Of a stretch of 28,488 nucleotides of DNA, positions 7,296 through 14,449 are shown in pieces. The stretch covers positions 1 through 28,488 of the forward strand of contig JBCCOX010000001.1 in the NCBI GenBank assembly GCA_039025155.1, read 5' to 3'. The notes below the pieces were generated by a model that searched no databases, was not told where the DNA came from, and saw only the letters and a list, made by a program, of their open reading frames with translations. Both the position numbers and the translations under genes were made by a program. How positions within the stretch are numbered: the stretch's first letter is position 1; every line of letters begins with the position of its first letter. Origin of the DNA: Deinococcota bacterium. Lineage in GTDB: Bacteria; Deinococcota; Deinococci; Deinococcales; Trueperaceae.

Positions 7296-9059
7296 CTATG
7301 AACTATGGTTGTATATCTTCTTGAGAATCCAACTAGGACGAAGAGTTTTATTCGACGTTCTCACATTATTAAAATGGTTTTGCTTCACAGTACGCTTTGA
7401 ATAGCGCAGCTTTTCTTGAATAAAGGCTTTCAAGACATCCATAAGCTGGTCATGCTGAAAAAAGTGCTTTTTGTAGTCGCTTGCTCCTAAGAAACCTGTT
7501 TCTTGCTGTAACAAGCTGAGTCTCAACTTACGTCTCGGCAAATGGTTTTTACCTGCTAGGACGTCTTGAAACGCTTGCGGCAACCAATCTTCTTGTAGGA
7601 AACGCTGTCTGATAGTGTCTATAACTCTGTGTAGCTGTGTTTCATCATGGTGCTCAAATACCTGAAGCAACTCGTGAATGTCTTCGTTAAGAGCCTCAAA
7701 CTGAGCAAAGCCACCACCTACAAGCTGTAGAGGGGCTACTTCATCAAAGTAGCTGTGTCTGTTTTGAGCATGAACCCTAGCACTAATTAGCTTAATTAAC
7801 TCGGTGTAAGCACCCGCAAGCCACAAAACACTATAGGTATGCCATAGTTTGTGGTTTGTAAAAGATTTATACGCGCTTGCAACCAATTGATCGTTGCTTT
7901 TGAGAAAGGCTAGAGTTTTGTGCTCGAGCGCTAAAAAAGCTTGTCTAGAATAATTATTGTCCGTATGAGCTCGTAATAGTAAATGCGCTAGCAACGACAC
8001 GCTCGAGAGTGAGCTGTATAAGCCCTTGGAAAAAAGCGGGTCAACAAAACCTGCTGCATGTCCCAAAAGCGCCCAACGATCACCCACGATTTGCTTAGAG
8101 CTGTACTGTATACGTTCTGTACGCGTCCACGGGCGTACTGCTTTTGCCTTGTTGAATTGGGCTTGAATGCTTGGAAAGCGGGCAATAACATCAAAAAACT
8201 CGTCTTCAGCACATACATCTTCACGTTTGGGATAAATACGTGGGTCAAGCATTACACCTACACTGCAGAGCGGATTGGTGGACCTAGTATGGTTGTTAAA
8301 CGGAATGACCCATAACCAACCTCCTTCAAACACGTGGTGAAGGGTACCTTCGGTTACGTCATAGGGAATGCCGTAGTGTTGCTTGCTAGCAATTATTTCA
8401 TGGAAGTTCTCAACATCGACCATATGGGTGAAGATAGCCCTCGAGTGCGTCTGAAGATTAACTTCTCGAAGCTGAAACTTCTCAGCTAGCACCGACTTAA
8501 ACCCGCCTGCATCAACTACATAACTGGCATGATAAATAGCGTTTTGGGTGTAAATGCGAACGCTATCGTCTTCAATATCTACCGCTGTAACGGGTGTGTT
8601 TTGCAATATGGTTGCGCCGTAAGAAATTGCTGTGCTGACTAAAAAAGCATCACTATCTTGACGGTAAATGTGTAACTCGTGTCCGTGGGGTTCTTTTGGG
8701 ATAACGGCTTGTAAAACTTCGTTTGAAGTGGGTACGTTACCTTCTGTGTGGTGTAAAAAACTAAAATGCCGTTTCACGCCATGTGACGTACCAATGCGCG
8801 AAACATAGTTTTCAGAGCTGAAGTAGGCTAGCTCAGGTACGTCGTAAAGTTCTGCCATAGCCCGCATAACTTCACTGGTTTCTAAAATCATGCTCTCGCC
8901 AATAGCAAAACGAGGGTGGCTTTTAGCCTCAAAAACGAGTACGTTTAGACCCTGTCTCGCGAGGATGGCTGCGAGGCTCGAGCCAGCCATGCCTGAACCG
9001 ATAATGGCAACATCATACGAGTTGACGTGATGTTTTTGGGATTTTTGTAGTGGCTTCAT
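7296..9059 (-). CDS. PrnC-like flavin-dependent halogenase
   Basis: GSGMAG FAD motif, HPRFAIGES, GVKRHF (conserved Lys), GGWLWVIPFNNH (WxWxIP), FVDPLFSKG. Start moved to the ATG at 9059, which has a GGAGG RBS. Confidence 0.88.
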   Translation of the reverse strand: MKPLQKSQKHHVNSYDVAIIGSGMAGSSLAAILARQGLNVLVFEAKSHPRFAIGESMILETSEVMRAMAELYDVPELAYFSSENYVSRIGTSHGVKRHFSFLHHTEGNVPTSNEVLQAVIPKEPHGHELHIYRQDSDAFLVSTAISYGATILQNTPVTAVDIEDDSVRIYTQNAIYHASYVVDAGGFKSVLAEKFQLREVNLQTHSRAIFTHMVDVENFHEIIASKQHYGIPYDVTEGTLHHVFEGGWLWVIPFNNHTRSTNPLCSVGVMLDPRIYPKREDVCAEDEFFDVIARFPSIQAQFNKAKAVRPWTRTERIQYSSKQIVGDRWALLGHAAGFVDPLFSKGLYSSLSSVSLLAHLLLRAHTDNNYSRQAFLALEHKTLAFLKSNDQLVASAYKSFTNHKLWHTYSVLWLAGAYTELIKLISARVHAQNRHSYFDEVAPLQLVGGGFAQFEALNEDIHELLQVFEHHDETQLHRVIDTIRQRFLQEDWLPQAFQDVLAGKNHLPRRKLRLSLLQQETGFLGASDYKKHFFQHDQLMDVLKAFIQEKLRYSKRTVKQNHFNNVRTSNKTLRPSWILKKIYNHSS

Positions 9060-9190
9060 TACCGCCTCCAAAATAAAAGATTTAGTTTGTATTTTTACTT
9101 GCAATATTTATAGTGATGTAGGATCAATTCAAACTTTGTGCTAGACACTCACACGGAACCTATTAGCGCCTAAGACTCACACGCTCATTT

Positions 9191-10084
9191 TCAGAGTTCA
9201 GTGTTGAGAAAGGGCAGTAGATGCTCGAGTAATTTTTCAGGTTGCTCTTCGGGTAGCCAGTGACCACACCTAGCAAGGCTTGCTCCCCTGACATTTTTGG
9301 CGTACCGCTTGACTTGTTCAGGTAAAAACCCACCCATACTTGAATCACCATCCAACGCCAAAACAGGCATATCAAGTGGGGTTTGTGCATATTGCTGGGT
9401 ATGAACTACATCGTCAGCAAAACTACGAAAGTAGTCAAAGCTGGCTTTTAACCTATCCGCTTGGCTGTACGTGCGAGCATATTCAGCAAAATCGTCAGCT
9501 GTAAACGCTGCTTGTTGCAGTGTCAAACGACGTACAAAATACTCGAGGAAATATGCCTCTTTACCTTCGATAAGTGCTTCTGGTAGCTCAGACAAATTAA
9601 AAAAGCCAAAGTTCCAAGCACCTGGTCCATGAGGTGTGAGTGCAGGAAACGAAAAAAGAGATTCATCAGCTATGGGAGCTTCTAGCAGTACAAGATGACT
9701 TATCTCATCTGAATATGTGTAGGCATAAGCATGAGCAACCATAAGCCCAATATCGTGCCCTACCAACTTGATACGTGAGTGACTTTGGATTTCAAGGCTT
9801 TGCACCAGAGTTCTAATACGTGTGGCTGTTTGTGCTTTACTGTAGCCATCCTCAGGGATGTCAGAATCTCCTAAACCTGGTAGATCTATGGCAATCACCG
9901 TGTAATGTTGCGCTAATGTTGGCATGATTTTGCGCCACATGTACCAGCTTGAACCCCAACCATGGAGAAGCACCAGCGGCTCACCCTGCCCGCCAATAAC
10001 ATAATGAAGGTTGAGGTCCTCCACTTGCCCAATCTGACTTTGAAAACCTGGCAGAAGGTTAGATATTGATGTTGTCCTAGTCAT
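9191..10084 (-). CDS. Alpha/beta hydrolase, epoxide-hydrolase (Cif-like) family
   Basis: LLHGWG, DLPGLGDSD, GHDIG nucleophile, LEAPI, CGHWLPEEQP. AAGGAG RBS. Confidence 0.85.
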   Translation of the reverse strand: MTRTTSISNLLPGFQSQIGQVEDLNLHYVIGGQGEPLVLLHGWGSSWYMWRKIMPTLAQHYTVIAIDLPGLGDSDIPEDGYSKAQTATRIRTLVQSLEIQSHSRIKLVGHDIGLMVAHAYAYTYSDEISHLVLLEAPIADESLFSFPALTPHGPGAWNFGFFNLSELPEALIEGKEAYFLEYFVRRLTLQQAAFTADDFAEYARTYSQADRLKASFDYFRSFADDVVHTQQYAQTPLDMPVLALDGDSSMGGFLPEQVKRYAKNVRGASLARCGHWLPEEQPEKLLEHLLPFLNTEL

Positions 10085-10104
10085 GGTAGCAACTCCTTTT
10101 TGAA

Positions 10105-10144
10105 ACTAAAAAGGCTCTGCTCAGATGAACGAAGCCTTTTTAGT
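10105..10144. terminator. Perfect 12-bp inverted repeat, terminator-like
   Basis: ACTAAAAAGGCT-N16-AGCCTTTTTAGT between the tautomerase stop and the hydrolase RBS. Confidence 0.45.
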
Positions 10145-10173
10145 CTGAGGTGTGTTCACACTAGATTTAGGGG

Positions 10174-13080: not shown

Positions 13081-13107
13081 CCTTAAAGCTACTTTAATCC
13101 TTAGCCT
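13077..13107 (+). promoter_or_regulatory. MerR-type promoter P4 (SRPBCC-esterase)
   Basis: TTGACC-19 bp-TAGCCT with perfect dyad TTAAAG-CTA-CTTTAA. Confidence 0.75.
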
Positions 13108-13157
13108 GAACTTAACAGCGAGTAAATTTGCTGAATTCACGTTAAGGAGTTCCAATC

Positions 13158-13679
13158 ATGGACATCAATAAGTCAATTACAATCAATCAGTCATTAGCAC
13201 GCGTGTGGAAAATCATGGCAACTGACTACACCAAAGTAGGTGAGTGGACAACCCAAATTGCCGTTTCTAAACCCAATCATGAGATCACAACTAGGCTTGA
13301 CGGCGCGCCTGCAGGTGGGCGAGTTTGCACGGCACCAGGCTTTGGGGACGTCAAAGAAACCATCACCCATTTTGATGAGCAAGACCACTATTTTCGCTAC
13401 AGTGCAGACATTAGCTCAATGCCCTTTTTTGTAAAAGGCATTGCTAATGGCTGGCAGTTTCGTGCCCTTGGACCCAACACAACTCAAGTTGATATGAAGC
13501 TCGAGCTTGAACTCAACGCCTTCCCTGGCGTGCTTATGGCACCCATGATGCGCGCGCAACTGGCTAAAACTTCCAACATCATCTTAAAAGAACTCAAGTA
13601 TTATGCTGAGAATGGACGTATTCACCCTAATAAAGCTAACGCCCTGAAAAAAGCAGGGCGCTTGACGGCAACGGCTTAA
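13158..13679 (+). CDS. SRPBCC (polyketide cyclase/dehydrase-like) protein
   Basis: ITINQSLARVWKIM...GGRVC...ETITHFDE...FRYS...LKELKYYAENG. AAGGAG RBS. Confidence 0.8.
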   Translation: MDINKSITINQSLARVWKIMATDYTKVGEWTTQIAVSKPNHEITTRLDGAPAGGRVCTAPGFGDVKETITHFDEQDHYFRYSADISSMPFFVKGIANGWQFRALGPNTTQVDMKLELELNAFPGVLMAPMMRAQLAKTSNIILKELKYYAENGRIHPNKANALKKAGRLTATA

Positions 13680-13732
13680 GTCCAAACCTAACCCTCCCCT
13701 TGGTCATAAAAGACTGAGGGGTATTTCTTATC

Positions 13733-14449
13733 ATGCCAAATATACTGCAACAATTTTTTAAGCCAAAGCCCACCATGCCAATACTTGAAGTGGGTAAAGA
13801 GACCTTTCCTTATTTAGAAGTTCACACTCCCGATGTCACTACTTCTAAACCTGCTCTGCTCGTTGGGTTACACGGCTTTGGGAGTGATGAAACACAACTT
13901 CAAACGCTCCTTGATCTCGAGCTTGATATTCCCTTTGCATATCTTGCACCACGGGCTTGGTACACCCTCACTGACGGCGGCTATGCGTGGTTTCCACTTG
14001 AACGCACAGACGGTGGATTCACTACTGATAGAGCTCAGGTTTTTGAGAGCTTAGCGTTGCTCGAGGCATTTATCCAAGCTGCTATCAACACGTACAACGC
14101 TGATCCAAACAAGGTTTTTCTAGTTGGTTACAGTCAAGGTGGGGGGATGAGCCTTAGCTACTACTTGCATAAACCTGAAACGATTGCGGGAGCAGTAGCG
14201 CTGAGTGGCGCACTTTTATCCGAGATGATCCCAGACCAGCTCGAGTCTTCGACGCTAGGCACTATACCGTTATTTGTAGGGCAGGGCACGCTGGACACAC
14301 TTATTTCCCAAGAGGAACGTCTGAACCAAAAGCAGTGGCTCGAGCAACACAACATTCCTTTGACCTACTGTGAATATCCTATTCCCCATGTCGTTTCGCA
14401 ACAACAGCGACGGGATGTACAAACATGGCTACAGCAGCGGCTTGTATGA
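13733..14449 (+). CDS. Phospholipase/carboxylesterase-family alpha/beta hydrolase
   Basis: LHGFGSDE, GYSQGG nucleophile elbow, GTLDTLI, IPHVVS. Confidence 0.85.
   Translation: MPNILQQFFKPKPTMPILEVGKETFPYLEVHTPDVTTSKPALLVGLHGFGSDETQLQTLLDLELDIPFAYLAPRAWYTLTDGGYAWFPLERTDGGFTTDRAQVFESLALLEAFIQAAINTYNADPNKVFLVGYSQGGGMSLSYYLHKPETIAGAVALSGALLSEMIPDQLESSTLGTIPLFVGQGTLDTLISQEERLNQKQWLEQHNIPLTYCEYPIPHVVSQQQRRDVQTWLQQRLV

Follow-up and report, generated by a model that had tools for sequence, protein, structure and literature searches.

A contig of a marine Deinococcota bacterium (family Trueperaceae; GenBank assembly GCA_039025155.1, contig JBCCOX010000001.1) raises the question of why a flavin-dependent halogenase and a homolog of haloalkane dehalogenases (HLDs) should be encoded around a single transcriptional regulator of the MerR family, together with a Cif-like alpha/beta hydrolase, a tautomerase, a DinB protein, an SRPBCC protein and an esterase. 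The window, i.e. the whole stretch of 28,488 nucleotides (nt) that was analysed, is the entire contig C1 of a marine genome that was assembled from a metagenome and is fragmented (766 contigs), 81% complete and about 5.0 Mb in size. A reading of the same DNA that was made without database searches (the sequence-only reading) had named these eight genes, placed them under the one regulator and four related promoters, and proposed that they handle carbon-halogen chemistry in both directions. All eight genes are present, with the halogenase being closer to CtcP and PltM than to PrnC, to which it had been likened. We put at about 0.6 the probability that the block is a self-contained, horizontally mobile and ligand-induced regulon of mix-and-match enzymes, directed at a hydrophobic aromatic compound; the induction, the ligand, the substrates and the transcriptional read-through to the halogenase are the parts of this reading that we infer, and the identities of the genes, the operator and its restriction to the block, the limits of the cargo and the recurrence of the set are results. 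We think it probable that the block is a chemically induced response of an undescribed kind: the literature was searched for a halogenase under MerR control, for a MerR-GyrI regulon with DinB or tautomerase, and for orphan Chloroflexi halogenases, and no description was found, in line with the sequence-only reading, which had not recognised the gene set as a described pathway.

Four promoters of 31 nt are located in the block, composed of TTGACC, a 19-nt spacer that begins with TTNAAG-N3-CTT, and TAGNCT. The intergenic region of the HLD gene and merR contains two of them in back-to-back orientation, with their -35 boxes offset by 7 nt: P_hld (12164-12194, reverse strand, -35 box starting at 12194, score 35.8) and P_merR (12201-12231, forward strand, -35 box starting at 12201, score 35.4), the latter pointing to autoregulation. 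P_srpbcc (13077-13107, forward strand, score 41.9) overlaps the stop codon of merR and precedes the SRPBCC gene; its inverted-repeat partner, P_taut (10420-10450, reverse strand, -35 box starting at 10450, score 39.5), precedes the tautomerase gene, with TTGACC and TAGGAT on either side of its 19-nt spacer. The spacer of P_merR carries the dyad ACGTTCAAG-CAG-CTTTAACGT, and the consensus of the operator dyad, which is also evident in 62 metagenome sites, is ACCTTCAAG-N3-CTTGAAGGT. A position weight matrix that was built from the sites (score of at least 22) has exactly four hits in the 5.0-Mb genome, all of them in the block, and the four related promoters of the sequence-only reading are thereby confirmed, each with its 19-nt spacer. 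The combination of a 19-nt spacer and a dyad is the hallmark of MerR-activated promoters, and the mechanism of activation at promoters with spacers of 19-20 bp has been described (PMC8113463).

The regulator (12250-13080, forward strand) has been assigned to the MerR family (BmrR/EcmrR type), with a putative GyrI-type effector domain at its C-terminus, on the basis of PF13411 and of its alignment with EcmrR. Its N-terminal winged helix-turn-helix (HTH) matches PF13411 with 58.2 bits and PF00376 with 35.5 bits; the alignment with EcmrR covers the full length of the protein (residues 4-272) at an E-value of 1e-14 and low identity, and the N-terminal part also matches BmrR and BrlR. The window protein has no PF06445 match at E<=0.001, and PF06445 is recorded for many of its orthologs at 50-73% identity. 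At E<=1e-40, the MerR orthologs number 1271. Such a regulator would bind the dyad ACCTTCAAG-N3-CTTGAAGGT inside the 19-nt spacers of the four promoters and, upon binding a hydrophobic small molecule, would untwist the DNA by the established MerR mechanism, activating the promoters; it would in this way switch on its own gene, the genes of the HLD-like lipoprotein and of the DinB protein, the SRPBCC and esterase genes, and the tautomerase gene.

The same geometry is found in other genomes and metagenomes (here, L-numbers denote loci on compared contigs, from metagenomes or genomes, and G-numbers denote compared genomes). Back-to-back promoters also occur in L185, L199, L204, L206 and L207, and in L208 the pair is offset by 5 nt; a site that is equivalent to P_srpbcc precedes the SRPBCC gene in L188, L204, L207 and L208; the same operator precedes merR in the cyanobacterial L027; and the halogenase orthologs of L013, L014, L206 and L208 are directly preceded by an operator copy of their own, with the halogenase of L166 having an operator as well. 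In G022, a complete genome that is related at the family level, the operator precedes an HLD gene that is divergent from MerR-SRPBCC. As a separate observation on G022, a second copy of the 5' end of merR, start codon included, precedes the intact gene by about 360 nt (L125:9660-9740 and 10020-10100); the duplication separates the old promoter from merR, and a variant promoter with a 17-nt spacer precedes the intact copy.

The recurrence of the genes has been followed from three starting points, i.e. a halogenase-started survey of 82 loci, an operator-started metagenome scan that led to 62 loci, and MerR homologs on long contigs; a metagenome scan with the MerR protein as the sole query gave no confirmed relative, and the scan for the operator pattern was used in its place. 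The co-occurrence that the sequence-only reading had named as its check was found in subsets of the genes, with the same operator in L204/L205, L206, L207, L208, L185, L188, L199 and G022. In L204/L205 (two samples), a PIN gene is followed by convergent halogenase-esterase-SRPBCC-tautomerase genes that are divergent from merR; L206 has genes for MerR, SRPBCC and esterase, as well as a halogenase ortholog with its own MerR operator that is disrupted by the insertion of an insertion sequence (DDE_Tnp_1; L206:5639-6386); and L207 has genes for MerR, tautomerase, SRPBCC and esterase. In L208, a stretch of about 10 kb contains an operator-bearing halogenase gene, two tandem HLD homologs (46-49% identity), an SDR gene, a tautomerase gene and merR, followed by SRPBCC and esterase genes in the order of the window. 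The HLD gene (79%) and the tautomerase gene are divergent from merR (71%) in L185; an HLD gene (80%) is followed by the operator and then by an SRPBCC gene (72%) in L188; the merR gene of L199 (71%) has a divergent neighbour that encodes a DinB homolog (45% identity); and an HLD gene (43%) comes directly after merR in G273, the HLD of G022 being 46-48% identical to that of the window. L198 has a MerR-tautomerase-MAPEG-SRPBCC operon with further genes, MAPEG being an add-on in L027 and L211 too, and tautomerase-SRPBCC-esterase genes in other metagenomes adjoin those of MerR orthologs with 66-75% identity. The arrangement extends to other phyla, as SRPBCC-MerR-esterase-halogenase in the Chloroflexota loci L209/L210 and as MerR-SRPBCC-SDR-halogenase in the Acidimicrobiales (Actinomycetota) locus L056; L213/L214 have MerR-SRPBCC-halogenase. 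The conserved core therefore consists of MerR, tautomerase, SRPBCC, esterase and halogenase, and HLD and DinB are recurrent add-ons. Deinococcus-type MerR orthologs (42-49% identity) were also tried as carriers of the set and were rejected, their neighbours being instead NmrA-like, methyltransferase, GNAT and carbonic-anhydrase-like genes.

As a cargo, the block forms a separate unit of about 7.5 kb, bounded by the 3' ends of vapC and of a rad52-like gene. The final 94 nt of the PIN toxin gene vapC (7165-7258, forward strand), which are the first direct-repeat copy and the left edge of the cargo, are duplicated at 14760-14852 with 85-87% identity, and 14579-14749 is a copy of the rad52-like 3' end (18044-18212), with 75% identity over 171 nt; the cargo is closed by these two backbone remnants (14579-14852). 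Because both 3' ends are duplicated, the eight genes can be said to occupy a single slot, flanked by vapC and the rad52-like gene as convergent genes of the backbone. Genes for AraC, a lipase-glyoxalase fusion (of the hormone-sensitive-lipase type) and YdeI make up a second cargo, which sits in a duplicated slot (14968-17880); homologs of its genes with 37-62% identity are located in L198 (L198:1995-12226), less than 10 kb from the MerR-tautomerase-MAPEG-SRPBCC operon, so that the two stacked cargos may be functionally related. With STAND NTPase, Phd/PIN and MazF toxin-antitoxin, ArdC-like and Rad52-like genes as the neighbours of the block, the contig resembles a plasmid or some other mobile element. 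Neither the operator nor a MerR ortholog was found in the same-genus genomes G001-G003, which marks the module as accessory rather than as a trait of the genus. The gene order is not an artefact of assembly, since low-coverage pieces from a sequencing run of a different study, about 97% identical, cross the halogenase/Cif-like, tautomerase, dinB, dinB/HLD and merR junctions; an assembly chimera was rejected on these same junctions and on a single 17-kb contig of the source run that spans the block.

The tautomerase gene is separated from that of the Cif-like hydrolase by a terminator-like hairpin with a 15-bp stem and a U run (10105-10144, reverse strand), in a region of 91 nt that folds at -28 kcal/mol (z -4.8; none of 200 shuffles was as stable). 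A single MerR-GyrI regulon with a shared operator, as the sequence-only reading had it, is supported. The genes beyond the hairpin, for the Cif-like hydrolase and the halogenase, each lack an operator copy in the window. No convincing sigma-70-type promoter was seen for the two genes either, the matches of a generic scan being no commoner than in shuffled sequence, and the gap of about 20 nt from the hairpin to the ribosome-binding site of the Cif-like gene leaves no space for a further promoter. Since no promoter follows the hairpin, the halogenase would depend on read-through, by which transcription from P_taut would pass the hairpin and be carried on to the genes of the Cif-like hydrolase and the halogenase. 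A second terminator-like hairpin is situated between the SRPBCC and esterase genes (13696-13721); both operons therefore have a hairpin after the first gene downstream of a MerR promoter, which suggests that the units of the regulon are promoter-gene-hairpin cassettes. The regulon is probably assembled from promoter-gene cassettes, with HLD, DinB, MAPEG, methyltransferase, SDR and other genes being swapped between lineages.

A number of observations weigh against the regulon as we propose it. In the window, the search for promoter sites gave no operator directly before the Cif-like gene or the halogenase gene, and both are downstream of the hairpin of about -28 kcal/mol, for which reasons we only infer their induction; a general search of the sequencing runs that hold the stretch, with none aimed at RNA, gave no RNA-labelled run. 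Most of the 82 sampled halogenase loci have neither this MerR nor the operator, a MerR ortholog being located just upstream of the halogenase gene in four (L027, L056, L023/L024), and the usual halogenase neighbours in Chloroflexota are lipid-related genes, i.e. a membrane-lipid context. The operator class ACCTTCAAG-N3-CTTGAAGGT within TTGAC...TTTAG is a widely used type of MerR operator, which also precedes unrelated genes in the 62 operator-bearing metagenome loci (L140-L201); because other MerR regulators share it, e.g. before MATE pump genes, its presence before a halogenase gene does not prove control by this MerR ortholog. Lastly, the frequencies of co-occurrence are biased, as the loci were partly picked for having MerR and halogenase on a shared contig. 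As a side observation, the genes behind this operator class in unrelated metagenomes include those for MATE pumps (7), MerR (10), DUF998, a solute-binding protein and an FAD oxidoreductase.

One alternative is a partial regulon of merR, HLD-dinB, tautomerase and SRPBCC-esterase, in which the Cif-like gene and the halogenase gene are differently regulated passengers past the terminator, an explanation that we regard as unlikely. The strong hairpin right before the Cif-like gene and the lack of an operator upstream of either gene are what it would predict, and it is also consistent with the Crp-SDR context of the Cif-like homologs and with the same-genus halogenase paralogs (G002, G003), which have no operator. 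It does not agree with at least eight other loci, in which halogenase orthologs have the operator or are part of a MerR operon, nor with the gap of about 20 nt, and the PIN/halogenase junction of L204/L205 is the same as that of the window, which makes the halogenase an old member of the module.

The halogenase (7296-9059, reverse strand) belongs to the CtcP/PltM/PrnC clade of flavin-dependent halogenases. The ATG at 9059, preceded by a GGAGG ribosome-binding site, is probably its start codon, in place of the TTG listed at 9104. Among the solved structures of the Protein Data Bank (PDB), it is closest to CtcP (E-value of 9e-108 over 490 residues) and then to PltM (7e-93), not to PrnC itself. 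The motifs GxGxxG (GSGMAG) and WxWxIP (GWLWVIPF), as well as the catalytic lysine in HGVKRHF, are invariant in an alignment of 24 homologs, and the lysine aligns with that of SHGQKSNF in CtcP. Halogenases of the CtcP/PltM clade act on aromatic rings by electrophilic aromatic substitution, and PltM uses free phenolic substrates, such as phloroglucinol. The enzyme is cytoplasmic, as it needs reduced flavin (FADH2) inside the cell; no flavin reductase gene was found in the window, and one PF01613 gene is located elsewhere in the genome (contig C483). The missing partner does not exclude halogenase activity, because a general reductase can serve.

The family of this halogenase has more than 2000 homologs at E<=1e-30, mostly from Chloroflexota, at about 60% mutual identity. 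In most of the Chloroflexota loci (among L025-L065), its neighbours are genes for CDP-alcohol phosphatidyltransferase (20 loci), a YdjM/PLC-like membrane protein (12), DedA/VTT (12), AhpC/TSA_2 (14) and pyridine-nucleotide disulfide reductase (10), e.g. at L032:11690-12301, L025:11749-12324, L042:7554-8285 and L057:12490-12876; L013 and L014 have a patatin gene in this place. A second paralog with 66% identity is present in the same genome as the window (G000), apparently split over two contig ends (C735:864-2213 and C119:7063-10053); on C119, the part that encodes its C-terminus is followed by paralogs of the MerR-GyrI regulator (27%) and of DinB (30%), where the operator motif is absent.

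The HLD-like protein (11025-12047, reverse strand) is a homolog of the HLD-II type, with a score of 328.3 bits against NCBIfam NF002938 (cut-off 241) and E-values of 4e-90 against AncHLD5 and 1e-72 against DhaA. Its segments HDWG, FFEAM and HFLQED align with the matching segments of AncHLD5 and of a DhaA variant, and we take them to hold the catalytic triad Asp-His-Glu. The tryptophan beside the nucleophile is kept, and the halide-stabilising asparagine of HGNP is replaced by valine (HGVP); because of this replacement, we call the protein HLD-like and not a proven dehalogenase. Among the MerR-linked orthologs, the same position is occupied by valine in L185 as well, by asparagine in G022, and by isoleucine in G273, where leucine also takes the place of the tryptophan. 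The N-terminus carries a lipobox (LVIG-C) and a proline-rich linker, and the orthologs of L185 and G022 have signal peptides; judged from these signals, the protein is an exported lipoprotein that would work outside the cytoplasm.

The Cif-like hydrolase (9191-10084, reverse strand) has an aspartate nucleophile and matches the epoxide hydrolase Cif at an E-value of 1e-64, being 45-50% similar to it. Its segments HDIG, LEAPI and GHWLPEE align with Cif, with the Asp129 nucleophile and the His297/Glu153 relay kept; at the positions of the epoxide-polarising His177 and Tyr239 of Cif, it has asparagine (AWNFGFF) and phenylalanine (DYFR). The two sites co-vary, with asparagine or glutamine accompanying phenylalanine in the near clade, and histidine accompanying tyrosine in distant Cif-like sequences. 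Its closest relatives (62% identity) are found in a Crp - Cif-like - SDR context, and no related MerR locus that was examined has a Cif-like gene, so that the window is its only occurrence within the MerR module. Members of the subclade (proteins P0245-P0262) are as a rule made with a signal peptide and encoded in a conserved Crp-hydrolase-SDR order; the window copy has no signal peptide and begins right after the hairpin.

The tautomerase (10174-10371, reverse strand) is a protein of 65 residues with an N-terminal catalytic proline (Pro1) and the 4-OT fold, and scores 23.0 bits against PF01361 (cut-off 22). Searches of the PDB by sequence with the protein and with the profile of its orthologs gave no match, and the family was settled by a fold search: the AlphaFold model, built from six orthologs, is beta-alpha-beta with a predicted local distance difference test (pLDDT) value of 80, and its top 50 Foldseek matches are, all 50, 4-OT, CaaD, TomN or DmpI. 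The N-terminal MPTI, with Pro1, is invariant in the six orthologs. The protein has no arginine, nor do the orthologs have a conserved arginine column. The carboxylate is bound by Arg11 and Arg39 in 4-OT, and by alphaArg8 and alphaArg11 in CaaD; having no arginine, the tautomerase lacks this carboxylate clamp and is not a dehalogenase of the CaaD type, contrary to the chloroacrylate dehalogenases with which it had been compared. Orthologs with 65-78% identity adjoin merR in L185, L198, L204, L207 and L208; an open reading frame of 65 residues beside merR in Leptolyngbya PCC 7376 was rejected as an ortholog, at 17% identity.

These features bear on the proposal that the block is a pathway that makes, modifies and breaks organohalogens, in which the halogenase and hydrolytic dehalogenases (HLD, Cif-like hydrolase and tautomerase) would share halogenated compounds, and which we hold to be quite improbable. 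Halogenase and HLD genes are under one operator system here and occur together again in L208; they are probably present in one marine genome, as one assembly contains both L166 and L185, with 4.1-4.3x coverage, and natural organohalogens are common in the marine habitat. The two enzymes are nevertheless separated in space, the HLD being exported and the halogenase needing cytoplasmic FADH2, and they are mismatched in chemistry: HLDs attack sp3 haloalkanes by bimolecular nucleophilic substitution (SN2), which does not fit with the electrophilic substitution of aromatic rings. Together with the replacement of the halide asparagine in the window, in L185 and in G273, the loss of the tryptophan in the latter, the tautomerase without arginine and the Cif-like enzyme without His177 and Tyr239, this leaves the two-way carbon-halogen chemistry of the sequence-only reading weakly founded. 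The loci L204/L205, L206, L209, L213 and L056 have a halogenase gene and no HLD gene, and G022, G273 and L185 have an HLD gene with no halogenase gene in view; the two are together in only two of the five long loci that have close MerR orthologs. No true HLD was found in the 82 halogenase loci, among which the Bacteroidota locus L055 has just a generic alpha/beta hydrolase with 28% identity.

The SRPBCC (Polyketide_cyc2) protein (13158-13679, forward strand; PF10604, 52 bits) is the most constant partner of MerR: orthologs with 70-74% identity are present in L188, L204, L206, L207 and L208, and it is also located beside MerR in G022, L147, L209, L213 and L056. It is followed by an esterase of the PF02230 phospholipase/carboxylesterase type (13733-14449, forward strand; 72 bits), which matches MhqD weakly (E-value of 4e-7); its orthologs come after the SRPBCC gene in L204, L206, L207 and L208 (58-65%), and a 45%-identical one is found in the Chloroflexota locus L209. 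The DinB_2 superfamily protein (10482-11006, reverse strand; PF12867, 58 bits) is encoded 18 nt downstream of the HLD gene. It had been likened to YfiT thiol S-transferases, which its 20.6 bits against the YfiT equivalog NF009807, far under the cut-off of 160, do not bear out; it meets the broad DinB_2 family only. DinB-type proteins also belong to the enzyme sets of quinone and electrophile stress. As a side observation on L209 (13977-16388), the MerR-esterase-halogenase genes are followed there by a DinB_2/FGE-sulfatase fusion and a Methyltransf_33 gene, which presumably resemble the ergothioneine genes EgtB and EgtD and would hint at a thiol link.

That the block is instead a small unit of signalling or chemical defence, where PltM-like halogenation would turn a phenolic metabolite into a signal or a toxin and MerR would detect the substrate or the product, is very unlikely, for although PltM is the second-closest solved relative and carrier-protein, NRPS and PKS partners are missing, the block has no genes for the biosynthesis of a substrate, its companions (DinB, MAPEG, esterase, SDR, AKR and methyltransferase) are typical of detoxification, and the regulator is of the multidrug-sensing type.

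Our preferred reading, that of the mobile, ligand-induced regulon, is that of a response that would take up the defence against a hydrophobic aromatic compound, phenolic or quinoid, by binding it and modifying it chemically once it has entered the cytoplasm; halogenation of the ring would be one step, and in which the exported HLD-like protein would act separately, beyond the cytoplasmic membrane. As a broader and tentative proposal, to which we give a low probability, the block could represent a transferable "aromatic toxicant response" of marine bacteria from several phyla, i.e. MerR-induced ring halogenation, aided by SRPBCC, tautomerase and esterase, that serves stress and defence rather than biosynthetic tailoring. 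If this holds, a very large family of orphan halogenases would receive its first physiological role, and exported HLD-like proteins would be an optional extracytoplasmic arm. To our knowledge, flavin halogenases have nearly always been explained as tailoring enzymes of biosynthetic clusters; the block ties a family of more than 2000 members that have no biosynthetic cluster to a ligand-sensing MerR regulator and to fixed small partners across phyla, and the physiological role of the family thereby becomes testable. The block is also an example of regulon evolution through the shuffling of promoter-plus-gene cassettes on a mobile element, and the secreted HLD subclade and the Cif-like subclade, with their altered active sites, may offer new chemistry for biocatalysis.

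Compared with known systems, the regulator resembles BmrR, EcmrR and BrlR in its MerR HTH, coiled coil and putative C-terminal GyrI-like ligand domain, in its targets with 19-nt spacers and a central dyad, and in that its own gene has a promoter with an operator and is divergent from a target operon; it differs in that the known members chiefly activate efflux pumps, whereas the block encodes enzymes as the targets, some soluble and some exported, and has no pump gene. The enzyme set resembles the quinone/electrophile regulons of MhqR and YodB in Bacillus subtilis, which also consist of inducible small detoxification enzymes and include a PF02230 carboxylesterase; here, however, the regulator is MerR and not MarR/DUF24, ring-cleavage dioxygenases and azoreductases are absent from the block, and a halogenase is present. 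The halogenase shares its motifs and its lysine with the tetracycline 7-halogenase CtcP, the phloroglucinol halogenase PltM and PrnC, all of them flavin halogenases with free substrates, but is located outside any biosynthetic cluster, with no nonribosomal peptide synthetase (NRPS) or polyketide synthase (PKS) found in the window, as the sequence-only reading had noted, and its large orphan family has the MerR operator in several lineages. The HLD-like protein scores 328 bits and has the Asp-His-Glu triad and the tryptophan of the HLD-II enzymes DhaA, LinB and DmmA, but differs from them by its lipoprotein signal, its proline-rich linker and the valine at the position of the halide asparagine. 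The block is best seen as a MerR system of the multidrug type in which enzymes take the place of the pumps, a reading that is better supported than the making and breaking of organohalogens.

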